Below the pieces are notes generated by a model. The model was given only the letters and a program-made list of their open reading frames with translations. It was not told where the DNA came from and searched no databases. From IMG/VR virus record IMGVR_UViG_2867359821_000001, positions 5,093 through 69,092 of that record: a stretch of 64,000 nt of DNA; one strand, given 5' to 3'. Made by a program: the position numbers and the translations under genes. This DNA comes from a virus. Shown here one piece after another: positions 2,674 to 62,549 of this stretch (positions are counted from its first letter, which is position 1; every line of letters begins with the position of its first letter).

Positions 2674-2698
2674 CCCCAAGTCTAGGGCGAATTACGTG
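2674..2698 (-). promoter_or_regulatory. partial copy of the recurrent promoter-like motif (AATTCGCCCTAGACTTG) directly upstream of terS ATG
   Basis: Minus orientation cacgtAATTCGCCCTAGACTTGggggATG resembles consensus ...AAATTCGAGCCTAGCCTTGA. TAGACT hexamer 6 nt before the start codon. Confidence 0.35.
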
Positions 2699-2762
2699 CG
2701 TAAAGCGTGAACATCGTGTTATGCTCTACTCGTGTGATGGTGTGTCCCCGCCGGTGAACTGA

Positions 2763-2814
2763 AGGCCCCACCCCCATGATGCCGGATTGTTAACCCGGCG
2801 GAGGGGTGGGGCCT
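2763..2814. terminator. 12-bp perfect stem-loop (AGGCCCCACCCC / GGGGTGGGGCCT), putative intrinsic or bidirectional terminator
   Basis: Inverted repeat seen directly in sequence, about 28-nt loop. T-rich run (TTCTGTTTGTCTC) follows on plus strand. Sits between DGQHR gene stop and terS start. Confidence 0.5.
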
Positions 2815-2829
2815 TCTGTTTGTCTCGGA

Positions 2830-4263
2830 CTATTTCGTCTTGCCAGCCTTCGGCATTGAGGCCTCGAACTCGGCGTTCGCCGCCAGCAGTTGCTCCAACG
2901 CAGGATCGGCGAGGAGATCCGCATCGAGCGACTCTTGCTCGGCGGTCGGCGGCGCGGGGGGCGCATCCTTCGGTTCGGCCCACAGCCACGGTGCGCCCTT
3001 CTTGCCAAGGATCGCGGCGTCGACCAGCGTCTTGACGATCCCGCGGATGTCCTGGCCGCGCCCGTTCGGCGAGAAGGCGTTCACGCTGAATGCCTCGTTG
3101 GGCATGTTGTTGATCCAGATGGAGTTGAGGTGCGCGCCACCCAAGAGGTGAGGCTCGATCACCTTGAAGAAGTCCTTCACCTGCTCGCGGGTCCACTGGT
3201 GCTTCTCGCTCATCAGGTCGTGGTAGACGCCGGCGAGAACGCGCAGCATGGCGGGGGAGCCCAGGAGAGTGGTCGACCGCAGTGTCTCGACCGAGACTTG
3301 GCCGATCTTCATCGCCTCAAGCTGCGGGAACGTCTCGGACACGAGGTCGAGGAACGAGCGCGCATCCTCGGCGACCTTCTGATCACCGAGGATTCGCTCC
3401 TGCACCTTGCCGATTCGGCCTTCAAGCCCCACCTGCACGGCGCGGATGATGTCGGCGACGTGGCGTGCGGTGGCGTAGTCACTGCTGTTGCGCTTCAGGC
3501 GATCGTTTTCGAGGTCAACGCGCTTGTCGAGAAGGGGGTGCTCGAGCACGGTGGGCAGCGCACGGTTGACGACCTTGAAGCTGTCGAAGCGTGAGCGCAC
3601 GGAGGCGGTGATGCCGAGCGCATTGTCTGCGATGTCGAAGAACATCTGACGGTACTCACGGGTGTCGTCGGTCACCTGTAGTTCGACGGAGACGCGCTCT
3701 GAGCTGAAGCGATCCTCGAGTGATCGGGCGGCGCGCAGGGCGGCCTCGGCTTCGCGGACGGCCGACGAGGTCTTGTCTCCGTGCTCGGCGCGCATGGCCC
3801 GTGCTCGGAAGTCCTGCGCCTTCTCGATTTGCTGGGCGATCAGCTGTAGTGCGATATGGAAGCCGAGGATACGGTGTTGGCCGTCAAGGATCTGAATCTT
3901 TGAGGCGGAGCGCTTCGGGTAGGACATGACGCCCCACTGCGCGAAGCCGTCCGAGGGCTCCATCTCGGAATCGAACTTGAAGATGGAGGGTGCCCGCAGG
4001 ATGATGCCGGGAATGACCCAGCTCTCGCGCGAGAGGTAGTAGTCGGCGAAGGCCTTCGCGTGGTTCTCCCGGATGGCGCGGTTGCCAGGGTTCGGGACGC
4101 TCGGATCCGGGCGCGGAACCATGTTGACGATCTGTGCGGGGGACAGCGAAAGCCCGAAGACCGTGCGCCCACCCTGCTTATAGCGGGTCGCGTACGTCTG
4201 CTCTTCGGTCGCGATCCCAGCGACAACGCGGTCGCGTGTCGGTTCAGTAACGGTTTTGGCCAC
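2830..4263 (-). CDS. DGQHR-domain protein (DndB/DpdB-like, ParB/Srx superfamily)
   Basis: 477 aa. KIQILDGQHRILGF (DGQHR motif) and QMFFDIADNALG (F-x-D-x-N motif typical of DndB). Own upstream motif copy and downstream hairpin. Confidence 0.7.
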   Translation of the reverse strand: MAKTVTEPTRDRVVAGIATEEQTYATRYKQGGRTVFGLSLSPAQIVNMVPRPDPSVPNPGNRAIRENHAKAFADYYLSRESWVIPGIILRAPSIFKFDSEMEPSDGFAQWGVMSYPKRSASKIQILDGQHRILGFHIALQLIAQQIEKAQDFRARAMRAEHGDKTSSAVREAEAALRAARSLEDRFSSERVSVELQVTDDTREYRQMFFDIADNALGITASVRSRFDSFKVVNRALPTVLEHPLLDKRVDLENDRLKRNSSDYATARHVADIIRAVQVGLEGRIGKVQERILGDQKVAEDARSFLDLVSETFPQLEAMKIGQVSVETLRSTTLLGSPAMLRVLAGVYHDLMSEKHQWTREQVKDFFKVIEPHLLGGAHLNSIWINNMPNEAFSVNAFSPNGRGQDIRGIVKTLVDAAILGKKGAPWLWAEPKDAPPAPPTAEQESLDADLLADPALEQLLAANAEFEASMPKAGKTK

Positions 4264-4295
4264 GAGAGGTCCCCTTCAATAGTGACGTGAATATG

Positions 4296-4318
4296 TACTT
4301 TACGCTCTAATTTGGGGG
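4296..4318 (-). promoter_or_regulatory. weak copy of recurrent promoter-like motif upstream of DGQHR gene
   Basis: TACTTTACGCTCTAATTTGGGGG on plus strand. Shares CTCTAATTTGG / TTAATTTGG core with other copies. About 30 bp upstream of 4263 start. Confidence 0.35.
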
Positions 4319-4352
4319 CGGCGCAACAACGCGCGGGGGAGAGCTGACTTCA

Positions 4353-4631
4353 ATGTCGGAGGGCTCCGCCTATGCTTCTGAGCATTCGAAGAAATGTTCT
4401 AATGAGGACCGACGGAGGGGTTGGCCAGTGAAGACCGAGACAGTCAAATTCAAAGAGTTCGATGGAGGAAGGTCCGTGGAGATGCAGAGCGCCCCCGACT
4501 TCGTGTTCGTCGAAGCCGGGGGCCACTGCTACGCGTTCGATCGCGCACTGTTCCTACATGGAGTGTCGAAGCTCCTCGGGATCTCCGTCATCCTCGAACG
4601 CGACGTCGAAGGGGACTTTGCGCTCCCCTGA
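4353..4631 (+). CDS. hypothetical protein (doubtful)
   Basis: 92-aa ORF with GGGGAGAG RBS-like sequence 10 nt upstream and protein-like composition (K/F/E). But GC3 is atypically low and the 3' end overlaps dNMP kinase gene by 78 nt. Confidence 0.25.
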   Translation: MSEGSAYASEHSKKCSNEDRRRGWPVKTETVKFKEFDGGRSVEMQSAPDFVFVEAGGHCYAFDRALFLHGVSKLLGISVILERDVEGDFALP

Positions 4632-5225
4632 CCGGTGACCGGCGATGACGTCCGCCTTCGCCTCCAGCTCGGCCAGCGTGCCGTCATTCAGGAGGGTCGA
4701 GTGGAAGTCGTCCGCCGACACTGAGTTCTCGCTGGCGTGCGCCGCGGTTCCAGCTGTGGGGGCATGGACACCTGGACGCTCGATCCAGAGGGCCTGACCA
4801 CCGAGCTGCGCGATCATCCTGACTTCGTTGGGGAAGCGGATGCCGGTCACCACGACAGGGTGGCCGGCGGCGCGGTGATCGTCGATCTTCCGGGCCATGA
4901 TCTGCACCCAGACGTTCTCGCCGATCATGTTGCGGCCGACCTCCGTCCCGAGCTGCTGCAGCAAGCGCCGCACCTCGGGAATCTTCTTCGCCTCTACGTA
5001 CCCGACCTCCGCGATCAGCTCGGAGTATCTAGCGAATTCCACCTCGGTGTCGTAAACGTTCCCGTAAGCCTCGACGATCGGGTCGATCGCGAGCATGGCC
5101 TCGTGGAGTGCGTCCGACATCCCGAGCTTGACGTATCCGTGCTTGTCGACCAGGCGATCGGCGAATGCGTCCTTGCCGGAGCGGAGGCGACCGCCGAGAC
5201 CAATGAGGGGTTGCGAGAGGTTCAT
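4554..5225 (-). CDS. deoxynucleoside monophosphate (dNMP) kinase
   Basis: Start trimmed to MNLSQPLIGLGGRLRSGKDAFADRL (P-loop GxxxxGKD typical of phage dNMP kinases). ATG at 5223-5225 overlaps upstream stop (ATGA). Confidence 0.65.
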   Translation of the reverse strand: MNLSQPLIGLGGRLRSGKDAFADRLVDKHGYVKLGMSDALHEAMLAIDPIVEAYGNVYDTEVEFARYSELIAEVGYVEAKKIPEVRRLLQQLGTEVGRNMIGENVWVQIMARKIDDHRAAGHPVVVTGIRFPNEVRMIAQLGGQALWIERPGVHAPTAGTAAHASENSVSADDFHSTLLNDGTLAELEAKADVIAGHRSGERKVPFDVAFEDDGDPEELRHSM

Positions 5226-5785
5226 GCGGGCACCCCCAGCCCGTCGATGAGGAGGGGCATCTCCGCCCAGTCGTGGAGCCGTGCGCGATCGGTGACGTGC
5301 CTGTTGTAGGCATAGTCGCCGAAGACGATGTGCTTCCAGGTCGGCTCCATCGAGCCACTGATCTTGGGCTTGTCGTCGATGAGGAAGTCGCCGTGCACGA
5401 TCGTCTTGTCGTTGGTCAGCACGAGGCGGGAGGCCCAGTGCGAGCCGTAGTGGCGCATGATCCACGCGAGCTTGTCGCTCGCGCACGTCGGGTTCGAGAT
5501 GTACGGGCTCGAGACGATCCGCACGTCGTGGCCGGCCTTGACGGCAGCCTTCAGCGCCTCTCGGGCGCCGGGGATCGGCTCCAGCCGGCTATAGAAGCCC
5601 GGCTTGGTCATGATCTGTTCGATGAGCACCTTCTCGGCATCAGTGCGGCCGAAAGTGAGATCCCACTGCGCCTGGAAGGCGGTTCGCGGGATGTTTGCTG
5701 CGGCGTCGCCGGCCAGATCGAGGCAGCGGTCGAACTCGTCACCCCAGTGGGCGATGACCGCGTCCATGTCGACGAGAATGCGCAT
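5222..5785 (-). CDS. 5'(3')-deoxyribonucleotidase, HAD superfamily
   Basis: MRILVDMDAVIAHWGDEF (DxD HAD motif I); start trimmed to ATG 5783-5785 (ATGA overlap). Confidence 0.65.
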   Translation of the reverse strand: MRILVDMDAVIAHWGDEFDRCLDLAGDAAANIPRTAFQAQWDLTFGRTDAEKVLIEQIMTKPGFYSRLEPIPGAREALKAAVKAGHDVRIVSSPYISNPTCASDKLAWIMRHYGSHWASRLVLTNDKTIVHGDFLIDDKPKISGSMEPTWKHIVFGDYAYNRHVTDRARLHDWAEMPLLIDGLGVPA

Positions 5786-6381
5786 CAGAACTCCCGTCCG
5801 TAGTCGATGCCAGTGACGCGGAGCTTCTTGCCCAACAGCCACGACCGGGCCTCGGGAATTCCCGCGTAGCTCGCGACCTCTGGGCGCAGGTAGGCGAGCG
5901 TCAGGTGCGGCTTGTACTCGGCGAACGAATCGACGTGCGGCAGGATGCTGAGCGCCGCGTTCATCTCTGCCAGCTCGTCACCGCCGAGGCGTGCCACGAG
6001 GCAGCCGTAGGGGAGGTCGGCGTAGGGGGACTCGAAAACCTCGATATCGACAACCTCGACCGACACCTCACGCGGCCATCCGATCAGCTCGTTGATGACG
6101 TCCTTGCGCTGATGCGATGGCGTAAGCAGTCCGTACTTTGCGGTGACGTGAGCGCTGGCCTCGGCCACGGGGCCCTGGACCCAGTGTCGCCAGTCGCCGT
6201 CCGGCGCGTAGACATAGTCGCTCTCAATGATCCGTACACCCCAGGACTGCCTATCGAGCTGCTCGCGAACGTCGAGCGGATCGAACGTCAGTCCAACGAA
6301 TCCGAGCCGCTTCATCTCGACGCCGGCGGCGTCGAGAATGTCATCGCGTCCGATGAACTGGTTCTTGTCTGCGGCAGCCAT
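5785..6381 (-). CDS. 2H phosphoesterase (LigT / 2'-5' RNA ligase-like cyclic phosphodiesterase)
   Basis: Two H-x-T-x motifs (SAHVTAKYG and KPHLTLAYL) about 80 aa apart, 198 aa. Confidence 0.6.
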   Translation of the reverse strand: MAAADKNQFIGRDDILDAAGVEMKRLGFVGLTFDPLDVREQLDRQSWGVRIIESDYVYAPDGDWRHWVQGPVAEASAHVTAKYGLLTPSHQRKDVINELIGWPREVSVEVVDIEVFESPYADLPYGCLVARLGGDELAEMNAALSILPHVDSFAEYKPHLTLAYLRPEVASYAGIPEARSWLLGKKLRVTGIDYGREF

Positions 6382-6545
6382 CAGCTCGCCTTCCTGAGCG
6401 CGACCGGATCCACGATGCGGGTGTCGAGCCCAACCTGGATGATGGCCTGGCTCGCGGCCAGGCCATTCGGGGCGCCGAGGTACTTCACGAAGGTGGCGCG
6501 AGTGGGGCCGGCGAAGACGGTGTCTCCGGGCTTGAAGTCGTTCAT
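6381..6545 (-). CDS. hypothetical protein (54 aa)
   Basis: MNDFKPGDTVFAGPTRATFVKYLG...; start ATG 6543-6545 overlaps upstream stop. Confidence 0.45.
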   Translation of the reverse strand: MNDFKPGDTVFAGPTRATFVKYLGAPNGLAASQAIIQVGLDTRIVDPVALRKAS

Positions 6546-6766
6546 GAGTTTCTCCTTATCGAAGTTGAGGTGCTGTCGTCGGGGGCGCCGGTGATGGTTG
6601 CGGCCTCGACGGCCTCGAGCACGATCGTCCGGCCGTCGTCGAGGCGGTACGCGCGCCATTCGACGTTCGGGTCGCGGTCGATGAGCTTCCCGAGTGGGAA
6701 CCGCCAGCGCTCGTCCGGCTTGACGAGACCGACGTGGCTGCCGGGGTTGAGGGCGACGGTGGTCAT
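6542..6766 (-). CDS. hypothetical protein (74 aa)
   Basis: MTTVALNPGSHVGLVKPDERWRF...; coupled ATGA overlaps at both ends. Confidence 0.45.
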   Translation of the reverse strand: MTTVALNPGSHVGLVKPDERWRFPLGKLIDRDPNVEWRAYRLDDGRTIVLEAVEAATITGAPDDSTSTSIRRNS

Positions 6767-6993
6767 GCCGGCTCCATCACTCGCTCGACGGGCATGAATG
6801 CCGTCAGCTTCTCGACAGGGAACGTGCGGATCATCCCGGTGAGCCCGGAGGTGACGGTGGCGTACGCGACGTCGTCCGCGGCCTGCTGGAAGCTCAGGAT
6901 CTTCCAGGTCGTCTTCTGCGTGAGATCCGCGGCCGGGCCGACGAACACGGTGTCGCCGACCCGGTGTCCATGCGAGATGGCGATCGCGCTCAT
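6763..6993 (-). CDS. hypothetical protein (76 aa)
   Basis: MSAIAISHGHRVGDTVFVGP...; start trimmed to ATG 6991-6993 overlapping upstream stop. Confidence 0.45.
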   Translation of the reverse strand: MSAIAISHGHRVGDTVFVGPAADLTQKTTWKILSFQQAADDVAYATVTSGLTGMIRTFPVEKLTAFMPVERVMEPA

Positions 6994-7307
6994 TCGGTGC
7001 GCTCCCAGATCTTCGGCCATTCGAAGCGGTGCGAGCGCAGGCCCCGGTCGGTGCCGAGGATGCGCGCGATGCCCGGCCGGCGGATCTCGACCGACGCGAC
7101 CTTGTCGATGTCATGGCCGAGCGCCTCGATTAGCGCCTTAATCCGCTCGCCGGGCGTGGCCTCCTCGATGATCGCATCGGCGATCTCGACCGCGCCGGGC
7201 TCGATCGAGACGGGGGGCGCAGCCTCGCCGACGGGCACCGCGGGCTCGGTAAGCACCGCGAGCAGCGCTTCGTCGGCTTGCGGCTTGGTGTTCTTGGCGG
7301 ATGCCAT
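6990..7307 (-). CDS. hypothetical protein (105 aa)
   Basis: MASAKNTKPQADEALLAVL...; start ATG 7305-7307 overlaps nrdH-like stop. Confidence 0.45.
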   Translation of the reverse strand: MASAKNTKPQADEALLAVLTEPAVPVGEAAPPVSIEPGAVEIADAIIEEATPGERIKALIEALGHDIDKVASVEIRRPGIARILGTDRGLRSHRFEWPKIWERTE

Positions 7308-7576
7308 CAGTTCTCCTCGTTGTTGAGCGCGGCCTGCTCGGCCGCGAGTTCGCGTTGGATGGTGGGGAATTCGGCGATCGTGCGGAGCTTGCCCTTCCAG
7401 CCGAAGACTGGCGCCCGCTCCATGCCGGCGTCCTTCAAGCGCTGCGCAGCCGCCTCGTCCTCCTCGACGTTCACCACGGTGTACGGAAGGGCGGCGGCGT
7501 CGAGGCGCTTCATCACCGTGTTGCAGGTGGCGCAGATCGTGGTCTTGTAGATCTTGAGCTTGTTCGCCACAGTCAC
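7307..7576 (-). CDS. nrdH: NrdH-like glutaredoxin
   Basis: KIYKTTICATCNTVMKRLDAAALPYTVVNV: CxxC redox motif in thioredoxin-fold context, 89 aa, GTG start. Confidence 0.55.
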   Translation of the reverse strand: MTVANKLKIYKTTICATCNTVMKRLDAAALPYTVVNVEEDEAAAQRLKDAGMERAPVFGWKGKLRTIAEFPTIQRELAAEQAALNNEEN

Positions 7577-7857
7577 AGCTCCAGGCCAGACGGTCGCGTG
7601 GGCAGCTCCAGGGTCTGCGCGGTAGAGCCGAAGCGTGCCTCAAGCTCCAGCACCTTCGCGCTCACTTCCCGCAGAACCTTCACGAGATCCGCGAGGCGGA
7701 ACATCCCGAGCACGCGCTCCTCGCCGTCCTCGGGGTCGATGTACTGCAGCTGCACCTCGACGATGTCCCTGTTGCCGGGGCGGGGCTCGGCAAAGAGCAC
7801 GCGCCTGTCCTCGGGGAGGAAATCGTCTTGGCCGGTGGCCTCGAGCTTGATGGTCAT
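7573..7857 (-). CDS. hypothetical protein (94 aa)
   Basis: ORF-track ORF, coupled to neighbours. Confidence 0.45.
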   Translation of the reverse strand: MTIKLEATGQDDFLPEDRRVLFAEPRPGNRDIVEVQLQYIDPEDGEERVLGMFRLADLVKVLREVSAKVLELEARFGSTAQTLELPTRPSGLEL

Positions 7858-8123
7858 TTGTGGTCTCGCTTTCTGCGCCAGAGGGGGCGCCGTGTGGCTT
7901 GGATCGCGGCGTGCTGCGCCGCAGGGAGTGGGGGAGTGAGCGCGGCGGCGATGTCTCGGCCGTCGAACTCGCCGAGCGTCACCCAGCGATCGTCCTCGCC
8001 GTCGAAGTCATCGGTGTAGGTGTGGCTGATGCGGACGGTGCTCGTGTGAGCGCTGAACGCGATGGCTAGGGAGTTGCGGCCATCGCGCGACTCGAGCGTC
8101 AGTGTCTGTTCGAGCGCGGTCAT
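7854..8123 (-). CDS. hypothetical protein (89 aa)
   Basis: ORF-track ORF, coupled to neighbours. Confidence 0.45.
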   Translation of the reverse strand: MTALEQTLTLESRDGRNSLAIAFSAHTSTVRISHTYTDDFDGEDDRWVTLGEFDGRDIAAALTPPLPAAQHAAIQATRRPLWRRKRDHK

Positions 8124-8320
8124 GCAAACGCTCCCGGCGTCGGGCCGTTGTGGTGGCTGATGAACGCCAGCACACCGAAGAGGACGAACAGGGCAACAAG
8201 CGTCCAGTAGGTCACCGCATGGATGCCGGAGAACGGCAGCCGCATGATCGCGCCGAGTGCAGCCTGCCCGAGCGCCATCAGGCCCACGGTGAAGCTGGCG
8301 AGGATCAGCACGCCGGTCAC
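8120..8320 (-). CDS. small membrane protein (2 TM)
   Basis: VTGVLILASFTVGLMALGQAALGAI...YWTLVALFVLFGVLAFI; start trimmed to GTG 8318-8320 (GTGA overlap with upstream stop). Confidence 0.4.
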   Translation of the reverse strand: MTGVLILASFTVGLMALGQAALGAIMRLPFSGIHAVTYWTLVALFVLFGVLAFISHHNGPTPGAFA

Positions 8321-8886
8321 AGCGAGGCCGCCATCACGAGTCGGAAGTTCCGCGCGTACTGGATCGACCACTCGATGTCGGATGCCGCGCGGTGCGCCTG
8401 GTCCGTGTCCGGTACGTCGAAACGGGCGACCTGCTCGGGGACCAGCGGCAGCGACGCCACCGTCTCCTGCAGCGTCCGCACGTCGAAGTTCCGGTAGTGG
8501 ACCATGTCGTCGACCTGTGACGTCTTGCGAGCGAGCATCCGGCGGTCAAACTCGACGCTGCTCCCGAAGAGGTAGGGTTTCTCGCCGAGCGGAACGCGGT
8601 TGTTGACTGCGATCTGCATGTCGGCGACTACCGAATGGAGCGAGCGGCGGGGCCCGCCGGGTCGGATGGCGTCGAGGAGCAGCCCGTTCTGCTCGTGCAT
8701 CTCGTATGCGAAAGGGCTCCGCTCGAGCAGCGCGATGACGTCATCTCTCTTGTTCGCGATGACGGCCGACTGGATCGGCACGATCTCCTCGAGATCGGGG
8801 CCGAGCAGACCCCACGCCACCTCGAGGATCAGATCATCATCGATGAGCCCGGTGGTCTCGATGTCTACAGGCAGGAAGTAGGTCAT
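8317..8886 (-). CDS. oligoribonuclease (Orn)-like DEDD 3'-5' exoribonuclease
   Basis: LPVDIETTGL...FGSSVEFDRRMLAR...HYRNFDVRTLQE...HRAASDIEWSI parallels Orn motifs (IDLEMTGL / GNSIGQDRRFL / HYRYLDVSTLKEL / HQAMDDIRESV). Confidence 0.6.
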   Translation of the reverse strand: MTYFLPVDIETTGLIDDDLILEVAWGLLGPDLEEIVPIQSAVIANKRDDVIALLERSPFAYEMHEQNGLLLDAIRPGGPRRSLHSVVADMQIAVNNRVPLGEKPYLFGSSVEFDRRMLARKTSQVDDMVHYRNFDVRTLQETVASLPLVPEQVARFDVPDTDQAHRAASDIEWSIQYARNFRLVMAASL

Positions 8887-12547: not shown

Positions 12548-12630
12548 GAATGGTGCTCCCTTGTCTGTGCGTGGGTGTGGTCTGCGCCAAAACTTAGGCG
12601 TGTAATTCACCATACATGATGTTTAAGGGC

Positions 12631-12646: not shown

Positions 12647-12756
12647 GAAAAGTTCCTCAGAGACGCGAGATGCCCCTCGGGCGGGAGGGGCGCCGAGGGG
12701 CTCGAGCGGACCACTCGCTCGCTGTCCTTTGTTGCCGAGGGGCGTTGGGACACGTC

Positions 12757-12789
12757 CAGCCTACGGGTGGATCTGGGCCTTAATTTGGG
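12757..12789 (-). promoter_or_regulatory. copy of recurrent promoter-like motif upstream of minus-strand operon
   Basis: CAGCCTACGGGTGGATCTGGGCCTTAATTTGGG; shares GGCCTTAATTYTGG core. Confidence 0.4.
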
Positions 12790-31229: not shown

Positions 31230-31541
31230 TCACTGACCGCGGCTCGCGCGCCAGGCCTCGATGCGCCGTCGGCGCTCCAGCCAGTCGCGCGTCTGCAGGA
31301 TACCCTCCGGGTCGACGTGGGCACGGAGCACTCGGTCGCATTGGCCGTCGAAGTCGGCGTCGGCACCCAACTTCACGGGCTCGCGCTCGAGGAAAACGAC
31401 CGCCTCGAAGAAAGGGTGGCGGGCGCGACCGATGCGGACCTGCTCGATCCGTCCGATGAGCGCACCATCGAGCTTGACCTGCCACTCGGGCGGCCGACGG
31501 GGGTCGAGCTGGGTCTGGGTGACAGCGAGACGGGAGTCCAT
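31230..31541 (-). CDS. hypothetical protein (104 aa), minus-strand gene embedded in plus-strand region
   Basis: MDSRLAVTQTQLDPRRPPEWQVKLDGALIGRIEQVRIGRARHPFFEAVVF... has protein-like composition, whereas overlapping plus frames are R/S-rich. Confidence 0.4.
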   Translation of the reverse strand: MDSRLAVTQTQLDPRRPPEWQVKLDGALIGRIEQVRIGRARHPFFEAVVFLEREPVKLGADADFDGQCDRVLRAHVDPEGILQTRDWLERRRRIEAWRASRGQ

Positions 31542-31622
31542 GGTCGCAATGTAGCCCGAGCCCCCCGCACAGCGAATCCGGCGAGGATCAAAGCTCTCCA
31601 CGAGGAAGGTCTCGACGCTAAG

Positions 31623-31943
31623 GTGATCGCCCAGCGCACAGGGCTCAGTGAGAGGCAGGTGCATCGGTGGCTCGGCAGAATGTTCGGCGAGGGGTGGCAG
31701 CGGATGCCGCGCGTGAGCCCGGTGGCAAAGGCGCGGGTGCTCCAGTTGAGCGCCGAGCAGGTGCCGCCGGATTGGATCGCCGAGACGGTCAAAATCAGCC
31801 GCACAGCCGTCGACAAGATCCGCGAGAAGGCGGGATTGAATCTCGATCAGGAATGGAAGGTCGTTCGCCTGGCCATCCAGCACGACGCGAAGCTCTTCAA
31901 CCTGCACAAGCAGTTCAGCCCCACCTCTACCCGGAGACTGTGA
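31623..31943 (+). CDS. helix-turn-helix DNA-binding protein (about 106 aa)
   Basis: GTG start; VIAQRTGLSERQVHRWLGRM classic HTH. Confidence 0.4.
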   Translation: MIAQRTGLSERQVHRWLGRMFGEGWQRMPRVSPVAKARVLQLSAEQVPPDWIAETVKISRTAVDKIREKAGLNLDQEWKVVRLAIQHDAKLFNLHKQFSPTSTRRL

Positions 31944-31962: not shown

Positions 31963-32181
31963 ATGACCACTGACGAAAAGATTCAAGCCGTCGAGGAATT
32001 CCTCGCATGGCGGGAGAACGCCCACCCCACGACCGCCCCCATCCAGCTCGTCGAGACCTGGCGCGCCGCTCTCCAAGCCGTCGATGACGCGGCGCTGCTC
32101 GCGGACATCCGCAAGGAGGCTGCGTTTGTCAGCACCTCGGATGAAGCGCTGGCGCTGGTGGAGAGGATCGCTCGTGGTTAG
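31963..32181 (+). CDS. hypothetical protein (72 aa)
   Basis: ORF-track ORF. Confidence 0.4.
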   Translation: MTTDEKIQAVEEFLAWRENAHPTTAPIQLVETWRAALQAVDDAALLADIRKEAAFVSTSDEALALVERIARG

Positions 32182-32548
32182 GCACAAGCACGGGCGCCGC
32201 CCTTTTAAGCCCTTCACTGACGCGCTGGCCGCCGCCAACGAGAACGAGAACGCTCCCCAGCCGTACTGCATCGACCTCCCGGAGAAGTACGTCGACTACG
32301 AGGTGGGCCAGCATCCCGACGAACATACTGCGGCAGCGATGTGCGCGCCGTGCCCCCTGCTCGAGCTGTGCAACATCAACGCTCGTCAACAGTTGCCGGA
32401 GCACGGCGTGTGGGGCGGGATCGCCTGGGTGAACCGCCGGCAGGCCCACCTGCTGCCGATCGAAGAGAAGGTCGTAACGCTGACAGTGGTCGCCGTGGAC
32501 GCGGGGCCCGCGTCCACGGCGATCGCAGGCGTGCTCGAAGCGGCCTAA
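32174..32548 (+). CDS. whiB: WhiB-family transcriptional regulator (Fe-S)
   Basis: Four Cys (YCIDLP, CAPC, LELC) followed by GVWGG motif; GTG start after GGAGAGGA. Confidence 0.55.
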   Translation: MVRHKHGRRPFKPFTDALAAANENENAPQPYCIDLPEKYVDYEVGQHPDEHTAAAMCAPCPLLELCNINARQQLPEHGVWGGIAWVNRRQAHLLPIEEKVVTLTVVAVDAGPASTAIAGVLEAA

Positions 32549-32608: not shown

Positions 32609-32880
32609 AGTTCTTGTTCCACTACGGGACACAGAAGCCAGATCACACACGAACGGGGACCATGATGAACGGATGCGGAGGCCTTCCAAGGAGGAGGCCG
32701 GGATGCGCCAAGCATCCCGAGAAGTCACTGGCAGCGAGGGCGAAGCGCCCGCCGGTGAACACCAAGCGTTCGAGGTGGGTGGCTCGCTAACGACCTGCCA
32801 CCCGCCTCGAATTAAGCGCGTATTACACATCTAGACTGGTCGAACGCCCCGCGCACGACCACGGCAAAAGGGAGAAGCAC
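32609..32880 (+). ncRNA. candidate structured leader / small RNA (no convincing ORF)
   Basis: Hairpins GGGATGCgccaaGCATCCC (about 32696-32714), GGGCGaagCGCCC, GGTGGGTGGC...GCCACCCGCC (about 32776-32808). Flanked by inverted 10-mers GATGTGTAAT (32597-32606) / ATTACACATC (32822-32831). ORF 32580..32834 has poor composition. Confidence 0.3.
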
Positions 32881-44689: not shown

Positions 44690-44691
44690 GG

Positions 44692-47089: not shown

Positions 47090-47125
47090 TTCAACGCTAG
47101 ACGCGAATTTGGCGCTTAATTCTAG
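47090..47125 (-). promoter_or_regulatory. promoter-like motif copy (TTCAACGCTAGACGCGAATTTGGCGCTTAATTCTAG); TAGCGT 7 nt upstream of ATG (leaderless arrangement)
   Basis: seen directly. Confidence 0.5.
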
Positions 47126-57344: not shown

Positions 57345-57377
57345 CCTCCGCCTGGGGCTCGTACTGCCGCGATCTCT

Positions 57378-57412
57378 TCAAGGCTAGGCTCGAATTTGGG
57401 CCTTAATTCTGG
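57378..57412 (-). promoter_or_regulatory. promoter-like motif copy (TCAAGGCTAGGCTCGAATTTGGGCCTTAATTCTGG) 35 bp upstream of TMP start
   Basis: seen directly; followed by GGCGGAGGATG RBS. Confidence 0.5.
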
Positions 57413-57415: not shown

Positions 57416-57855
57416 TCAATCGTCTTCATCTTCGACCTCTTCGGCCCGCTCGGCAGCGAGCTGCTCGTAGTACAGCGAGCGGAAGTCGCTGAGGGGAGTG
57501 TCGTCGGTCGAGTAGAACTCGGGGTAAGCGACTCCTGACTTGCTGTCGTCGTTTACGTGCTTCTTCTCCTCCTTCTTCACCTCGTTGGAGGCGTAGCAGT
57601 CGTCGAACTTGACCTTCACCTGGAGGCGCGGGTCGGAGTTCCTGCAGAGCCATCGAGGCAGGCCGCACTGCGAGCACTGCTCGTCCTTGACGATTTGATA
57701 CGCCTGCATGATGAGCACGTCGAGGTGTGACCAGGGCTTGCGGTTGTCCTCTCCGAGGATCATGGTGGTGGGCCGAACGCCGGCGGCCAGACTGGCCTTG
57801 ATGAGGCTCAAGTACCTGCCGCCGGCGTTAGACGACAGGTACTCGGCTAAAAATC
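57416..57855 (-). CDS. tail assembly chaperone, -1 frameshift extension (T-part)
   Basis: -1 frame open from T5 run (GATTTTTAG) at the end of upstream chaperone ORF through 57416; ORF-track M is actually TTG. Confidence 0.45.
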
Positions 57856-58590
57856 CGCGTCGTCGGTGGCGTTGTGCTCGATCGCGACTTCGTACGACAG
57901 CTCCAGCATCGCGCGCTCAAGGCGCGGGAACTGGCCCTCGGGGAGGTAGTCGCGAAAGGTCCGGGCTCGTTCGATCGACAGCGACGAGTGCGTTTCGTCC
58001 TGCTCGACGTCCGTCCAGGATTCGACGGAGGCGACAAGCGAGACCGCGGAGTGCTCCAGCTCGTACTCGTCCACCATGTCGGCGGGGACGTTCTTGCCCC
58101 TGATGCCGAGGTTCAGGCGGGCTCGACGACGCATGTCCCGCTTGATGATGTCGGGCAGGCTGTGGAGGGTGAACTTGAAGGCCGTGGCCTCGAGGCGCTT
58201 CTTGAGCGCCGTGACTTTTCGCTTCTCCTTCGCCAGCTCGGCCTGGATCTCCTTGGCTCGCTCGGTGTCGGCCTCCGGGACTTCCAGCCCTGCCTCGACC
58301 TGATGCTCGATGCGCTTCACGAGGGAGTTGCCTTCCTCCTCGAGCTGGTCAATGCGGCCGGCGATGCCCCTACGGACGCGGCGGCCGGTTCGGATCCCGC
58401 CCTCGGTCTGGTCGAGCGCGTACCCCAGCTGGGCTCCTGCTTCCGAGTCGGTGTAGATCGTCACGGACTTGCGGCGCTTCGACTTGCCGGCCAGGCGGTT
58501 GACCAGCTCGAAGTCCGTTCGAGCTGATTCCTGGATGCCGTCGAGTTCCGCTTCGATCTCGGCGGTGGCGTCCTTCTGCTTCTTGGCCAT
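57847..58590 (-). CDS. tail assembly chaperone (G-part, 247 aa)
   Basis: acidic coiled protein directly upstream of TMP; AGGAGGGCCTC RBS. Confidence 0.5.
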   Translation of the reverse strand: MAKKQKDATAEIEAELDGIQESARTDFELVNRLAGKSKRRKSVTIYTDSEAGAQLGYALDQTEGGIRTGRRVRRGIAGRIDQLEEEGNSLVKRIEHQVEAGLEVPEADTERAKEIQAELAKEKRKVTALKKRLEATAFKFTLHSLPDIIKRDMRRRARLNLGIRGKNVPADMVDEYELEHSAVSLVASVESWTDVEQDETHSSLSIERARTFRDYLPEGQFPRLERAMLELSYEVAIEHNATDDADF

Positions 58591-58616
58591 GAGGCCCTCC
58601 TTCGTTCGTGGTCGAT

Positions 58617-58650
58617 TCCAGGCTATGTGCGATTTAAGACGCTAATCAGG
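58617..58650 (-). promoter_or_regulatory. degenerate promoter-like motif copy (TTCCAGGCTATGTGCGATTTAAGACGCTAATCAGG)
   Basis: seen directly; 25 bp upstream of chaperone start. Confidence 0.35.
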
Positions 58651-58705
58651 GGTGCACGACGAAGCCCCCGATTCCTCGAGGGCTCCGTCGTCCTAGGTAG
58701 CGAGA

Positions 58706-59461
58706 CTAGGGAGCGGTGACCGTGATTGCCTTCGTCGTACCGGCGGCCGAGCCGGGGTATGTCGCCGTGATGTCCACGGAGCCTGCGGCGATGCCGATCA
58801 CGATGCCGTGCTTGGTCACGATGGCCTTCGTCTCGTCGGAGGAGACGTAGGTGGCGCCGATCGTGATGTCGTTGCCCTCGTAGACCGACTTGAGCTGGAT
58901 CGAGGCGCCCGCAGCGACCGTGGTGCCACCGGTGACGGTGACAGCCGTGGGCGTGGCCGACGGGATGATCCGGTTGATGCCCACGAAGCCCTTCGGCTTG
59001 AAGTCCACCGAGTAGTACCGGTTCTTGTCACCGCGCTGCTCGGAACGCGCGTCGGTGATCGTGTGGAAGACGTTGACGACCTGGCCGGGTGCGAACGGCG
59101 TCGAGGCGGGGTAGCCGTCGCGCTGAATCAGCACCAGCTCCGTGTGCGGAACTGCGACCAGGTTGCGAGTCTGGCGATAGATCGAGGACGTGTCGGCGGG
59201 CGTCGGGGTGTAGAACGAGATGCTGCCACCGAAGTTCTCGTTGCCTCGGGTGGAGGCGCCGGCCGCGTCGGTGAGGGCGCGGTCCTCGTCCTGCTCCGAT
59301 GCTTCGATGCCGAAGTCGTAGCCGTCCCACTTCGTGGCCTCGGAGATGTTCTTGGCGCTGAGGAACTCAGACAGCGCCGGCGTGAGCACGCTGGCGAAGG
59401 AGGCCTTCGGGGCGACGGCGAGCAGCGTGTTCTTGTTGCTGGCGATTTTCTTGCTGGGCAT
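58706..59461 (-). CDS. major tail protein with C-terminal Ig-like (Big_2-type) domain
   Basis: MPSKKIASNKNTLLAV...; C-terminal TVTGGTTVAAGASIQLKSV...VDITATYPG Ig-like repeat; trimmed start ATG 59459-59461. Confidence 0.55.
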   Translation of the reverse strand: MPSKKIASNKNTLLAVAPKASFASVLTPALSEFLSAKNISEATKWDGYDFGIEASEQDEDRALTDAAGASTRGNENFGGSISFYTPTPADTSSIYRQTRNLVAVPHTELVLIQRDGYPASTPFAPGQVVNVFHTITDARSEQRGDKNRYYSVDFKPKGFVGINRIIPSATPTAVTVTGGTTVAAGASIQLKSVYEGNDITIGATYVSSDETKAIVTKHGIVIGIAAGSVDITATYPGSAAGTTKAITVTAP

Positions 59462-59472
59462 GACTCGACTCC

Positions 59473-60069
59473 TTACGCCGCGAGGACGTAGTTGGGCTTG
59501 GCCGTGGACTTGGAGATGAAGACCTGCTGGATCTTCTGCTTCTGGCCATCCGCGTGAACGTTGACCGGGAGGTCCGTGTGCGAGTAGTACACGTCGATCT
59601 CCTGGCCGACCGCGAACGGGACGGTGGAGGCGTAGCCCACGCGGTGGACGATGATGTAGGGCACGTCCGGCGCGAAGGTGAGAGCCTTCCACAGCGCGAA
59701 CACGCTGTCGGCAGCGGCGGGGTTGGCATCCCGGAAGCCGGTCATGTCGTTGTCGAAGCCGAAGTCGGTCAGGTCGACGGAGTTGGCGGGCTCGCAGAGC
59801 GTCTTCTCATCGTCCTCCTGAGAATCCGTGAAGCTCAGCGTGAAGCCGTCGGACACGATGGCGCAGGACACGTTGCCGCCCGCGCCCGCATTCGCGTGGC
59901 CGGTGCTCGTGATCGGCGCGTAGCGGTTGAGGACCGCGGTCGTCAGCGCGTCGTACGCGACGAGACCCGTGGGGGTGATGGCATTCGGGATGCCGAGCAC
60001 CTCGTGGGCAGGGATGAGAAGGACCGTGTCTGTCTCATTGATCAGCTTGTCAGGAATGGGAACCACCAC
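59473..60069 (-). CDS. major tail protein paralogue (198 aa)
   Basis: shares YIIVHRVGYASTVPFAVGQEIDVYYSHTD with downstream gene (LVLIQRDGYPASTPFAPGQVVNVFHTITD); GTG start. Confidence 0.5.
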   Translation of the reverse strand: MVVPIPDKLINETDTVLLIPAHEVLGIPNAITPTGLVAYDALTTAVLNRYAPITSTGHANAGAGGNVSCAIVSDGFTLSFTDSQEDDEKTLCEPANSVDLTDFGFDNDMTGFRDANPAAADSVFALWKALTFAPDVPYIIVHRVGYASTVPFAVGQEIDVYYSHTDLPVNVHADGQKQKIQQVFISKSTAKPNYVLAA

Positions 60070-60101: not shown

Positions 60102-60137
60102 TTCAAGGCTAGGCGGGTTTTGCTCCCTTAATTTTGG
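60102..60137 (-). promoter_or_regulatory. promoter-like motif copy (TTCAAGGCTAGGCGGGTTTTGCTCCCTTAATTTTGG)
   Basis: seen directly; upstream of major tail gene; forms left flank of HNH insertion. Confidence 0.5.
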
Positions 60138-60159: not shown

Positions 60160-60912
60160 ATGCCATCACGCCCGCATTCGAAATCCCAGCCGTTCTGCCA
60201 CGTAGAGGGTTGCTTCAACTTCCGCCGAAGCAACCGATACTGCCCTGGGCATACGAAGCAGGAGCGAGCGGGGCTCGCATTCTCGACGCTCCCCAAGCAA
60301 AAGCTCGAGGCGTGGGCCGTCCCGGAGTGCTCGTTCGAGGCATGCGAGAACTTCGCGTCCCGTCGAGGCCTGTGCGATGGTCACTATGCCCAGTCGAAGC
60401 GAGGTGAGGGGTTGCGCCCGCTACGCAAGCACTCATGGCAGCGTGGAGGTGTGTGCTCCTTTGATGGATGTATGCTCCCGATGAAAGCGAACGATCTCTG
60501 CGCGACACATGCCAGCCAGCGTTACTTCGGGCACGAGCTTCACCCGATTCGCGGCCGCATTTCGTGCCCGGTGCCAGACTGTGAAGGGACCTACACCGCG
60601 AAGTCGTCGATCGAGTTCTGCGCGAAGCACACACGAGTCCTGCGCCTCTATGGGCTCACTCCCGAGCGGCTCATGCAGATGTACGTCGCTGGCTCAGTTT
60701 GCGAACTCTGTGGCGACCGGACGAAGACCGCGATCGACCATGACCACGCCTGCTGCGCTGGTGAAGGCTCTTGCGGCGAATGCGTTCGCGGGACCCTTTG
60801 CCTGAACTGCAATCACATGCTGGGCAGCGCCCGTGATAGCCCGGAGGTCCTGCGCGCGGCTATCGCTTACCTGCAGAGTCACGCCGAGCGGTCTTTGCGT
60901 CTCGCCGCGTGA
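60160..60912 (+). CDS. Endonuclease VII / HNH-family nuclease with four N-terminal Cys/His repeats (free-standing, plus strand inside minus-strand module)
   Basis: AIDHDHACCAGEGSCGECVRGTLCLNCNHMLG; repeats CHVEGCFNFRRSNRYCPGHTKQ / CSFEACENFASRRGLCDGHYAQ / CSFDGCMLPMKANDLCATHASQ / CPVPDCEGTYTAKSSIEFCAKHTRV; paralogue of gene 1594..2247. Confidence 0.7.
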   Translation: MPSRPHSKSQPFCHVEGCFNFRRSNRYCPGHTKQERAGLAFSTLPKQKLEAWAVPECSFEACENFASRRGLCDGHYAQSKRGEGLRPLRKHSWQRGGVCSFDGCMLPMKANDLCATHASQRYFGHELHPIRGRISCPVPDCEGTYTAKSSIEFCAKHTRVLRLYGLTPERLMQMYVAGSVCELCGDRTKTAIDHDHACCAGEGSCGECVRGTLCLNCNHMLGSARDSPEVLRAAIAYLQSHAERSLRLAA

Positions 60913-61117
60913 CGTTCCCCTCACCCGACTTCTCTTCGTGGGACGCGAGATAGTCGGCGACTGCCTCGCTGGGGATCGGGGTGAAAGCGAGAGGCTTCGC
61001 ATCGACGTCAACTTCGATGAGGTTTGGATCCTCGAGAGCGACTCGGCGGTCGTAGACGCCGATGAGCCCGGTGCGTGCATGGCGGTACGTCCTCGGCGCG
61101 TTCAGGTCATCCATACG

Positions 61118-61153
61118 CTCAAGGCTAGGCGCGATTTTGGCGCTTAATTCTGG
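61118..61153 (-). promoter_or_regulatory. promoter-like motif copy (CTCAAGGCTAGGCGCGATTTTGGCGCTTAATTCTGG), right flank of HNH insertion
   Basis: seen directly; no minus-strand gene immediately downstream (HNH gene intervenes). Confidence 0.5.
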
Positions 61154-61608
61154 ACGGAGTGGTCCCAGTCGACGCCCTGATTCACCGTGGTCTCCAGGTA
61201 GAGCCCCTCGATGTACCGGGTAGGGACGTTTTCGGTTGCGGGGCGGCGCGATCCGAAGCCGCCCTTCGCCTCGTAAGCATCAGCGGATTCTGACGGCTTC
61301 CAGTCGACCAGCAGCTCGATGACGTCAGCCATGAGATCCTGCGCGTCATCGGGGTCGCCGGCGACGCACGCGATAGTGGCGCCCAGGACGTGAGGCTGGC
61401 CCAGCTCGCTGTTGGTGAGGTTTCGGTCGCGCTTCGTCTTCACGGGGGCGCCGAACGTGATCACCGCGTAGGCCATCACTGAACCGTCTTCGGTGTGACG
61501 CGGGATGATCGCTTCGTCGTCGACCGACCCTTGCCAGGCGCGGCCGCCGTTGATCGTCTTCAGTTTCGCCAGGGTGTTGCGTCGCTCCTGGAGTCCGTGT
61601 GCGGCCAT
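61144..61608 (-). CDS. neck / tail terminator-like protein (154 aa)
   Basis: MAAHGLQERRNTLAKLKTINGG...; position immediately upstream of major tail gene; trimmed start. Confidence 0.4.
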   Translation of the reverse strand: MAAHGLQERRNTLAKLKTINGGRAWQGSVDDEAIIPRHTEDGSVMAYAVITFGAPVKTKRDRNLTNSELGQPHVLGATIACVAGDPDDAQDLMADVIELLVDWKPSESADAYEAKGGFGSRRPATENVPTRYIEGLYLETTVNQGVDWDHSVQN

Positions 61609-62108
61609 CAGCTCACCTTCAGTCCTGCGTTGCTCAGGCGCTCGAGCATCATCTCTCGCGCCTCGACGTACGACTGCTGGAGGGCCATCATTCCTTCGAT
61701 GTCCGCGGTGCCGTACTCCTGGTAGAGGTAGTAGATCTCGAGGCCAAGCTCCCAGCCCCACGAGCCTTCGACTCGGCTGCCGCCGAAGAGGTCGATGTTG
61801 GATTGGATGTCGTCGATCATGTTGCCGCTGTCAATGCGGCCGGGATGTCCGCCGCTCGTAGCAGCGCGCTCTGCACCCGTCCTGGTGATCGCCGTCTCGA
61901 TGATCTCCTTCATGCGGTCCTCGCCGAAGAGGGTGGCGTCCTCGATGATCCCGTGGGCGAAGTCGAGAAGCTGCTCTTCGAGTTGGCCGCGCATCCAGTC
62001 CTCGATGTCGCCGATCGCGAGAGTCACCGATTTGCGCGCGGTGCCGTGGCGACCGCGATTAGCCACGGCCGCCCTCGGTGACTGTCTCGATCGTTCGGAG
62101 TGCGGCAT
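61608..62108 (-). CDS. head-tail connector protein (HK97 gp10-like?)
   Basis: position; GHPGRIDSGNMIDDIQSNIDLFG segment; 166 aa, real start may be internal. Confidence 0.35.
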   Translation of the reverse strand: MPHSERSRQSPRAAVANRGRHGTARKSVTLAIGDIEDWMRGQLEEQLLDFAHGIIEDATLFGEDRMKEIIETAITRTGAERAATSGGHPGRIDSGNMIDDIQSNIDLFGGSRVEGSWGWELGLEIYYLYQEYGTADIEGMMALQQSYVEAREMMLERLSNAGLKVS

Positions 62109-62511
62109 GCGACGAGTTCGTGGCGAACCGCACCTGGAACTTCATCTTCGCAAGCTCTGGATCGCGGCCGCCGGTGAACTCCACGACGAGTCCCTGAGTG
62201 ACCGACTCCTCGGTGATCTCCGGGTCGCCGGCGAGGATCTCGCACTGGAAGCGGTAGCGACGACTCGACTGAGCACCGCCCCCGCTGCTCGTCTCTTTCG
62301 GCGCTTGGAGGTGCTGCGCGCGGGCCCGCCGTCGACTAAGCACGATCTCGCCGGGCGTGTACGGCCCGTAGTCGCCGGTCACCTTGTCGCGTGTGCCTCG
62401 CGTGCCTTTCGTGCTGACGGTGATCTCGCCGTTGAACTCGAGGACGGCCTCGTCGCGGATCTCGTCAGCCCAGCTCGAGCTAGTGCGCGAGGGGGGACGG
62501 GAGAGGGCCAT
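62059..62511 (-). CDS. head-tail joining / structural protein (150 aa)
   Basis: position; TAAACT hexamer 6 nt upstream of ATG (leaderless arrangement). Confidence 0.35.
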   Translation of the reverse strand: MALSRPPSRTSSSWADEIRDEAVLEFNGEITVSTKGTRGTRDKVTGDYGPYTPGEIVLSRRRARAQHLQAPKETSSGGGAQSSRRYRFQCEILAGDPEITEESVTQGLVVEFTGGRDPELAKMKFQVRFATNSSHAALRTIETVTEGGRG

Positions 62512-62517
62512 TCGTCC

Positions 62518-62549
62518 AGTTTAGGTTCGACCTCGTTGCCTAATTCTGG
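62518..62549 (-). promoter_or_regulatory. variant promoter-like motif (AGTTTAGGTTCGACCTCGTTGCCTAATTCTGG) between integrase stop and neck genes
   Basis: seen directly. Confidence 0.4.

Follow-up and report, generated by a model that had tools for sequence, protein, structure and literature searches.

The 64,000-nucleotide stretch analysed here, which will be referred to as the window (positions 5,093 to 69,092 of IMG/VR record IMGVR_UViG_2867359821_000001), is part of an integrated prophage of ~69 kb in Microbacterium sp. CGR2, located on the 3.68-Mb chromosome contig RBHX01000001.1 (GCA_003626735.1). Its G+C content is 65%. A near-identity search of a phage collection returned as its sole match a 265-bp stretch of the lysin gene with ~76% identity to Microbacterium phages, so that there is no close relative among the sequenced phages; for the major tail protein, identity amounts to 37% with its counterpart in Clavibacter phage CMP1 and to 25-27% with proteins of Microbacterium phages. 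The gene layout was obtained from our own gene calling together with the NCBI gene calls, and functions were assigned via Pfam and PHROG (Table 1). The head genes (portal to capsid) occupy one end of the prophage, the neck and tail genes the opposite end. Between these two groups is the gene for the large serine recombinase and therefore attP, so that the virion module is split upon integration. A 36-bp sequence recurs in the intergenic gaps of this prophage. It had been predicted from the letters alone to be a promoter-like motif with about ten copies, and it is the subject of the present analysis.

In gene orientation the motif reads CCAGAATTAAG-N14-CTAGCCTTGA. An alignment of 12 copies, ten from the CGR2 prophage and two from its relative L001, contains as invariant columns a C, the tetranucleotide ATTA, one spacer C, T-A-n-n-n-T and a G two bases later, and no others; the core common to the copies is ATTA-N17-TAnnnT-nG. 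The upstream box (box 1), (CC)AGAATTAAG, comprises 11 nt and is found at -39 to -29 in all copies. The four strong copies of the original prediction (47090-47125, 57377-57412, 60102-60137 and 61118-61153) were confirmed, three of them matching the 36-mer consensus with at most three mismatches compared to 0 matches expected in shuffled sequences. A position weight matrix trained only on these four copies (PWM A), for which the maximum in 60 shuffled windows was 12.1 bits, yielded four further sites above this value, at 12754-12789, 62514-62549 and 32806-32841 (scores in Table 1) and at 58616-58651 (15.9 bits). A second matrix (PWM B), trained exclusively on eight copies from other genomes and with a null maximum of 18.7 bits, recovered seven window sites at 25-46 bits; the site at 58616-58651 obtained 14.2 bits, which is below this maximum, and is regarded as marginal. 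The seven robust sites of the window are therefore those at 47090, 57377, 60102, 61118, 62514 and 12754 on the minus strand and at 32806 on the plus strand, the latter having been missed earlier when the motif was placed on the minus strand only. Two more strong copies lie just past the left window edge (12779-12814 and 14352-14387 on L003, same prophage), where they precede the portal gene and a 331-aa head gene, giving nine robust copies and one marginal copy for the whole prophage.

All accepted sites are located in the non-coding ~9-10% of the window and point the same way as the gene that follows. The original prediction would have been refuted by copies equally frequent within genes or on the wrong strand; none of either type was found, and the outcome is thus in its favour. 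The four to six strongest copies are nearly identical, spacer included; weaker copies have only the boxes in common. The motif family is real and non-random. A strict motif scan of metagenome contigs gave 0 matches. A loose scan of viral contigs (CCAGAATTAAG-N15-TANNNT) produced 120+ single-match loci, nearly all of them chance matches in low-GC sequence and none above 14 bits by PWM; a match in L002 (GC 31%), one of two from a stricter first scan of viral contigs, was also attributed to chance.

Among the degenerate copies proposed earlier, those at 12754 and 62514 are supported by the matrices and that at 58616 is the marginal one, whereas three others turned out not to be copies. The sequence at 2674-2698 reached at most 1.8 bits. 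A -10-like hexamer TAGACT (2676..2681, minus strand) is present there 6 nt before the ATG of terS (2672); the terS upstream sequence CTAGACTT is conserved in L001, and a TAGACT box precedes terS in L005 too. This arrangement plausibly represents a separate leaderless promoter rather than a motif copy. At 4296-4318, a box-1-like CCCAAATTAGA is found without a TANNNT hexamer at the fixed spacing. The third site, 44659-44689, holds an element of another kind: the perfect 7-4-7 palindrome CGATTAG-AGCG-CTAATCG (44663-44680) just upstream of the 430-aa phosphoesterase gene; it resembles an operator for a dimeric regulator. GATTAG-N4-CTAATC was rejected as a second repeated element, with three matches at up to two mismatches compared to 0.55 expected and two of 100 shuffles also reaching three; two weaker look-alikes of the palindrome (7128 and 20563) are not significant.

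Table 1. Motif copies, candidate regulator genes and gene layout of the CGR2 prophage (window coordinates; SD, Shine-Dalgarno sequence; HTH, helix-turn-helix).
Feature	Position	Strand	Remarks
Motif, strong copy	47090..47125	-	GAATTA-N17-TAGCGT; ATG of 225-aa gene (47086) 7 nt on, leaderless-type
Motif, strong copy	57377..57412	-	GAATTA-N17-TAGCCT; 39-nt leader with SD GGAGGA; tape measure gene (start 57341)
Motif, strong copy	60102..60137	-	AAATTA-N17-TAGCCT; 36-nt leader to GTG of 198-aa tail-tube-like gene (60069)
Motif, strong copy	61118..61153	-	GAATTA-N17-TAGCCT; ATG of 84-aa gene (61114) 7 nt on, leaderless-type
Motif, weaker-class copy	12754..12789	-	AAATTA-N17-TAGGCT; PWM A 21.1 bits, PWM B 33.2 bits; directly after 70-aa HTH gene
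Motif, weaker-class copy	62514..62549	-	GAATTA 62546-62541, -10 TAAACT 62523-62518; PWM A 18.2 bits, PWM B 25.3 bits
Motif copy	32806..32841	+	GAATTA-N17-TAGACT; 44-nt leader, SD GGGAGAAG, 107-aa gene (32882); PWM A 18.2 bits, PWM B 45.0 bits
Motif, marginal copy	58616..58651	-	TGATTA-N17-TAGCCT; 29-nt leader, SD GAAGGAGGG, 247-aa tail-assembly-chaperone-like gene (58590)
WhiB-like gene	32174..32548	+	PF02467 29.1 bits (cutoff 23.6); PHROG WhiB-like matches; ~260 nt upstream of 32806 copy
Tandem-HTH gene	31530..31943	+	HTH_23/HTH_29; alternative candidate; two genes upstream of motif
Host iron-uptake genes	beyond 64000		
Large serine recombinase	62552-64000	-	
Neck genes	61144-62511	-	DUF6093 and two others
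84-aa gene	60860-61114	-	
HNH endonuclease	60160-60912	+	antisense to neighbours
Two tail-tube-like genes	58706-60069	-	198-aa gene (60069): Phage_TTP_16 assignment
Two chaperone-like genes	57416-58590	-	247-aa gene (58590): weak PHROG tail-assembly-chaperone match
Tape measure, three minor tail genes, 117-aa gene	47122-57341	-	
Tape measure protein gene	53679-57341	-	PhageMin_Tail assignment
225-aa gene and lysin	45717-47086	-	
Membrane proteins, 430-aa phosphoesterase-like gene, 157-aa gene	42842-45632	-	phosphoesterase is the label of the original prediction; no Pfam match
Early arm	14532-42761	+	helicase, RtcB, tandem-HTH, WhiB-like, exonuclease/SSB-like, Band-7, Prim-Pol
98-aa and 70-aa genes, then nucleotide-metabolism operon	4554-13346	-	glutaredoxin, NT5C, dNMP (deoxynucleoside monophosphate) kinase; Pfam
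DndB/DGQHR, terS, HNH, terL	1-4263	-	
Portal, 331-aa head gene, scaffold, capsid, two small genes, then host genes	beyond left edge	-	

In every copy, a hexamer ending in ATTA (GAATTA in most copies, otherwise AAATTA or TGATTA) is located exactly 17 nt upstream of a TANNNT hexamer. The first of these, at the -35 position, matches TTGACA at one of six positions. In the second, all 12 copies and all lineage variants agree in the initial TA and the closing T. As the invariant columns are the positions read by a sigma-70-type holoenzyme, the promoter reading is supported, and judged from the sequence the box geometry is that of a -35/-10 promoter with a -10 of the actinobacterial primary-sigma type. 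The same phage carries a canonical promoter, TTGACC-17-TAATTT, ~200 nt upstream of the 32806 copy and conserved in relatives; host polymerase evidently reads a normal -35 here, and the motif constitutes a separate promoter class.

The position of the start codons is consistent with this geometry. In five of the ten prophage copies (those before the portal gene, the 331-aa head gene and the genes starting at 62511, 61114 and 47086), the ATG follows 6-7 nt past the hexamer and no SD sequence is present. At 62511, the start of the DUF6093 neck gene, the distance is 6 nt. The leaderless arrangement originally described for three copies therefore holds for the three window sites, at which the ATG is also the first possible start of the open reading frame (ORF), and it was additionally observed at terS and at the two copies outside the window. 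Four copies have short leaders of 29-44 nt, with a clear SD sequence at 58590, 57341 and 32882; at 60069, an AAGG next to the GTG start is the only SD-like sequence. Within the window, a TANNNT hexamer is found 5-8 nt before the start in six of 108 genes (background 0.5% per position), namely at three motif sites, at terS, at a gene for a 98-aa membrane protein and at a gene for a 58-aa ribbon-helix-helix (RHH) protein.

The copies are tightly fitted between their neighbours. An upstream stop codon, TAA or TAG, lies inside box 1 in three cases and ends 1-4 nt before the motif in three more, so that the intergenic space is essentially just promoter. At 61118 the TAA of the upstream gene is within box 1, at 47090 a TAG lies inside the motif, and the 62514 copy is found directly downstream of the stop codon of the serine integrase; the 60102 copy is located in a divergent gap beside the plus-strand HNH gene. 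The five SD-less genes start 29-40 nt after the preceding stop, and translation from a read-through transcript would thus hardly be possible; a transcript beginning at the ATG would be the simplest way of expressing them. We regard it as quite probable that the copies are transcription initiation sites.

Two further structures were noted next to copies. A 16-bp GC-rich hairpin (58654-58693, minus strand) lies 13 nt past the stop codon of the major tail protein gene and directly upstream of the marginal 58616 copy; it resembles a terminator or attenuator that would raise the major tail protein relative to the downstream genes. The gap between the WhiB-like gene and the 107-aa gene contains, besides the canonical promoter (32580-32608), a small ORF on the plus strand (32665-32790) starting with MxGCGG(L/I)PRR. 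It comprises 41 codons in the window and 11 codons, followed by a 10-bp GC hairpin, in L141. Lineage differences in its first 10 codons are mostly at third positions, so that it appears to be translated; it could be a leader peptide or attenuator situated in front of the motif promoter.

Most sites lie within the 3-70 bp of the next gene that had been predicted, the exception being 12754. With respect to the genes served, a copy was found for the nucleotide-metabolism operon, the neck genes, the major tail gene, the tape measure gene, the chaperone block (by the marginal site) and the block that comes after the minor tail genes, begins with the 225-aa gene (47086) and includes the lysin. The terS, DGQHR/DndB and phosphoesterase genes, which had also been assigned to the set, have none. 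Nor is the set purely late as originally suggested: the plus-strand copy precedes a recombination/replication block of which the 107-aa gene (32882) is the first and Prim-Pol the last gene, and the portal and head genes outside the window also carry copies. Regarding other genes of the prophage, the DndB/DGQHR-family gene (2830-4263, minus strand) adjoins terS, and an RtcB RNA ligase gene (26154-27434, plus strand) lies in the early arm; like the former, it lacks its own motif copy. The structural region contains two free-standing HNH (Endonuclease_7) genes, one (60160-60912) antisense and flanked by the 84-aa gene and the tail tube genes, where the local GC is lower, and the other (1594-1911, minus strand) between terS and terL.

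Conservation was examined in more or less distant relatives. In L001, a 4.7-kb viral contig whose terL shows 89% nucleotide identity, both head-gene copies are present at the same junctions, and the nine substitutions relative to the CGR2 prophage are confined to the spacer, the NNN positions within the hexamer and the final base. Homologues of the WhiB-like protein with 57-76% amino acid identity were traced to six metagenome contigs (L135-L140, with L136-L138 near-identical), in which the gap between the WhiB and 107-aa genes holds the motif at the same place, with GAATTAAGC and TAGACT invariant and the spacer variable. L141, a 70-kb contig of a metagenome-assembled genome with a 72% identical Prim-Pol, has two copies with box 1 AAATTAAG. 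The first follows WhiB (AAATTAAGC with TAGACT); the second (18385, minus strand) precedes the gene following the long minor tail gene, that is, the junction of the 47090 window copy, and L142, a 67-kb Logan contig, has a copy at this same position (18315, minus strand). In the more distant L142 and L006 (Microbacterium sp. M), the variant CCCGAwwTAAG-N-TANNNT, with an ATG 6-7 nt on, was detected at the portal, head and post-minor-tail junctions.

Other lineages use other elements. The metagenome contig L132 contains TTAGTCCRCTAA, a 5-2-5 palindrome, five times in 21 kb (354, 9967, 12192, 15141 and 20823), usually followed by TANNNT and often then by a leaderless ATG. The T32-type phages (L005, L127 and L128) repeat GAASGC-N21-TAGACTCC-N6-ATG/GTG, with the start codon 8 nt past the hexamer (in L005 at 9482, 11749, 13332, 16479 and 17479). 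Both styles occur in tandem in L141 (18290-18385, minus strand), where a motif copy is followed 70 nt on by a T32-type TAGACT 8 nt before an ATG. Multiple internal, often leaderless promoters in the virion genes, each lineage having its own upstream element, would thus appear to be a trait of the group, and the lineage specificity of that element suggests a co-evolving phage factor. Overall, the phage-specific promoter architecture proposed at the outset, with a TANNNT -10, a box other than TTGACA and leaderless starts, is backed by the geometry, the strand and position bias, the invariant columns and this conservation.

With respect to the protein that might read box 1, Pfam scans of the prophage revealed neither a sigma factor nor an RNA polymerase, and homologues of MotA, AsiA, Mor, C and Ogr were absent from the Pfam results and from a PHROG scan of ten selected proteins. 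The last genes of the early plus-strand block, directly before the first motif copy, encode a tandem-HTH protein, a 72-aa protein and the WhiB-like (Wbl) protein, an order kept in every relative examined. The end of the preceding gene block is the typical place of late and middle activators. The Wbl protein is intact, with four Cys and a GVWGG turn, and its nearest solved relatives (PDB) are WhiB3, WhiB4 and WhiB7. It has an N-terminal basic arm, RHKHGRRP, and RH(K/R)HGRRP (GRRT in one homologue) is found in every lineage with a GAATTAAG or AAATTAAG box. A WhiB-profile scan of viral contigs gave no match. Homologues of the tandem-HTH protein are encoded beside WhiB in L139, L141 and L142, and this protein is an equally good candidate reader of an asymmetric site. 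The idea of a WhiB-HTH fusion ('Rosetta stone'), prompted by both proteins matching different parts of phrog_472, was rejected: no fusion was present among the 39 homologues listed, and ten of them checked by Pfam, including the four longest small ones, were without a WhiB domain.

Wbl proteins, phage ones included, bind region 4 of the primary sigma factor (PMC13013590), and in WhiB7 an AT-hook is used on an AT-rich sequence that lies 3 bp upstream from the -35 (PMC10727445). The CGR2 phage resembles WhiB7-type activation in that the Wbl gene lies beside the regulon, that the invariant ATTA is an AT-rich sequence at -35 in a 65%-GC genome and that the short conserved basic arm (RHKHGRRP) could contact the minor groove. 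It differs in that the AT-rich core occupies the -35 itself, with no separate -35, and in the N-terminal position of the arm. Neither the EPW motif nor the C-terminal RGRP AT-hook is present in the phage Wbl, which is thus not a member of the WhiB7 family, although it could work in a WhiB7-like manner. The assignment of the factor to the Wbl and/or the tandem-HTH protein can be made only tentatively. More doubtful still is the specific case in which the Wbl, possibly together with the tandem-HTH protein, would bind sigma region 4 while its arm RHKHGRRP re-targets polymerase to the GAATTAAG promoters.

Based on these findings we propose that the copies are phage-specific promoters that would be read by host RNA polymerase containing the primary sigma factor. 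The downstream box would be an ordinary actinobacterial -10 (TAnnnT), and box 1, at the -35 place, would be bound by a phage factor, a product of the early plus-strand operon, that would recruit or re-target polymerase in the manner of class-II or sigma-appropriation activation (Mu, P2, T4 middle promoters). Such a factor would jointly switch on the recombination/replication block, the nucleotide-metabolism operon and about eight short virion/lysis transcription units. Half of the units would have transcripts beginning with the A of the ATG and hence leaderless, and translation of the respective gene would need the motif promoter. Dependence of the copies on a phage-encoded factor, be it activator or repressor, is probable, and we consider the proposal as a whole, promoters dependent on a phage-encoded positive factor, reasonably likely. 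As for box 1, an activator is slightly favoured, because the box is fixed at the -35 position, the early lytic control region is without a copy, and the candidate genes end the early block.

Several points weigh against this proposal. Actinobacterial promoters often work on the -10 alone, and box 1 could equally be a repressor operator. The 58616 copy is statistically marginal, the 12754 copy is 210 nt away from the first called gene (12547) of the nucleotide-metabolism operon, and the strong copies share much of their spacer (CGCCAAATTCGCG), which could partly reflect recent duplication and not function. The lack of both WhiB7 hallmarks in the phage Wbl has to be added. Finally, the link to WhiB and the HTH protein consists of synteny and of two lineages, RHKHGRRP occurring with GAATTAAG and SKRRRENLP (L142) with GATTTAAG, and is confounded by relatedness; an arm/box pairing seen in two lineages only does not amount to covariation.

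The alternative that fares best, although we consider it unlikely, is negative control, in which the -10 alone would be a host promoter and box 1 together with the spacer would bind the prophage repressor, silencing about ten promoters in the lysogen. The stoperators of cluster A mycobacteriophages (L5 gp71) are likewise many asymmetric, transcription-oriented sites in short intergenic gaps, and the CGR2 copies are similar to them in number, asymmetry and orientation. A stoperator, however, is a single box of 13 bp whose position relative to a -10 hexamer or start codon is not fixed, whereas the CGR2 copies have a fixed 17-nt spacing to TANNNT and half of them a fixed spacing to the ATG as well. 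Negative control would suit an integrated temperate prophage with numerous asymmetric, intergenic sites oriented with transcription, and conservation does reach into the spacer of the strong copies; moreover, actinobacterial promoters commonly require TANNNT alone (PMC3160421). Nevertheless, box 1 is found at -35 with the same 17-nt spacing in every copy and in diverged lineages, which a roadblock site would not need, and the early lytic region at 13347-14531, where a repressor must act, is without a copy. Small HTH/RHH genes (12802-13014 and 29222-29398) could encode repressors, yet no repressor was identified, and no obvious CI-like repressor gene was found around the divergent switch region.

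In that part of the prophage, two segments at or near the divergent switch, 13347-14531 (1.2 kb) and 15616-16186 (0.57 kb), contain no convincing ORF, Rfam match or tRNA, and scanning 12400-16500 for generic sigma-70 promoters and terminators returned no more than weak matches, close to what chance would give. The 58-aa RHH-like protein (29222-29398, minus strand) has an AT-hook, KRPRGRPS. Its gene is transcribed against the early arm beside a 620-bp gap and has a leaderless-type TATAGT 7 nt before the ATG; the protein may be a regulator or repressor expressed in the prophage state.

It is improbable that both boxes are read by an alternative sigma factor of the phage itself, comparable to SPO1 gp28/gp34 or to the products of the sigma-factor genes annotated in phages of the Microbacterium clusters EC and EI. 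Such a factor would account for conservation beyond the need of a primary sigma factor (CTAGCCTTGA in the strong copies and the 11-nt upstream box), some Microbacterium phages are known to combine a sigma-factor gene with a repeated asymmetric motif of 18 bp (PMC9224216), and some homologues of the HTH family give weak Sigma70_r4-like matches. Against this, neither a sigma region 2 nor a convincing region 4 was detected (Pfam to E = 0.5 for the early genes; whole-prophage scan), and the -10 region is invariant only for TAnnnT across copies and lineages, which is the signature of a primary sigma factor. A promoter for an extracytoplasmic function (ECF)-type sigma factor (GGAAC-N16-17-CGTT) was rejected by inspection, as the CGTT of some copies is 22 nt from GAAT and the spacing is therefore wrong.

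Ordinary constitutive host-type promoters, alike merely through recent copy-and-paste recombination within the phage, appear a shade less probable again. The near-identity of the four to six strongest copies, spacer included, would be explained in this way. However, between genomes differing by 10-40% the boxes are invariant and the spacer drifts, weaker copies share the boxes alone, and the box at the -35 position is unlike the TTGAC box used elsewhere in the phage; in addition, ten always-on promoters for virion and lysis genes would harm the lysogen. An element acting at the RNA level on a polycistronic late mRNA (processing site, terminator or translational signal), which might be suggested by the location of the sites between genes of an apparently single long operon and by short GC dyads in some spacers, was rejected and has next to no chance of being correct, since the dyads differ in register between copies, the fixed 6-7-nt distance from hexamer to ATG would be left unexplained, RNAalifold found 0 conserved pairs in the 12 copies, and single-sequence folds gave z values of -1.3 to +0.2 relative to shuffles on both strands; in the whole window there was no Rfam match above threshold and no tRNA.

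Activation through box 1, the reading we prefer, has well-known counterparts. Repeated phage-specific promoter motifs are a familiar kind of element (T7, T4, SPO1, Mu, P2 late). In T4 middle promoters, a MotA box is combined with a sigma-70 -10 (TAnnnT), and AsiA brings about sigma appropriation; in the Mu, P2 and T4 systems the activator gene ends the preceding temporal class, and the promoters split the morphogenetic genes into few units. The CGR2 motif is like the Mu Pm/late (Mor/C), P2 late (Ogr) and T4 middle (MotA/AsiA) promoters in that dispersed promoters combine a phage-specific element at the -35 position with a host-type -10: a conserved element replacing or overlapping the -35 is common to several promoters and is kept in relatives. 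Differences are the host, a high-GC actinobacterium, the leaderless nature of half of the motif promoters, and the type of candidate factor, Wbl or tandem-HTH.

Within the same host genus, the cluster EC phages have an 18-bp motif, TAgaCTATagGTgTaAgC, in 12 copies 21-30 bp upstream of starts (PMC9224216). As in CGR2, about 10-12 oriented copies precede structural and non-structural genes and have been read as promoters (PMC9224216). The EC phages are lytic, however, and encode a sigma factor, and their motif is a single box of other sequence located upstream of the ribosome-binding site, whereas the CGR2 motif has a two-box -35/-10 architecture with leaderless starts in a temperate prophage. 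Leaderless TANNNT promoters are common in Actinobacteria (PMC4633059, PMC3160421). The CGR2 copies share with such host promoters, in which TANNNT lies 6-8 nt before the start, an identical -10-to-ATG geometry and the lack of an SD sequence, but the host promoters have no conserved box at the -35 position and do not form a repeated 36-bp family. The motif sequence itself appears to be new. The same applies to its dense use among siphovirus virion genes, where stop codons fall within the -35 box and ATGs coincide with the predicted +1, in a temperate Microbacterium prophage whose virion module is split by integration.

If confirmed, the motif would provide a compact, phage-inducible and partly leaderless promoter set for Microbacterium, a genus with few genetic tools. 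The siphovirus virion genes would be organised as about eight very short units, several of them translatable as leaderless mRNA only, and not as one long operon. This would suit a prophage in which the head genes are set apart by integration from those for neck and tail, and in which each part needs a promoter to itself. It would also offer a concrete DNA target for a phage WhiB-like regulator, proteins that are very common in phages and mostly of obscure function. Should re-targeting by Wbl be true, it would be an actinobacterial counterpart of T4 sigma appropriation driving a middle-plus-late regulon in which leaderless mRNAs predominate, and a defined role together with a DNA target would be assigned to the regulator class that is the most abundant in actinobacteriophages yet obscure in function.

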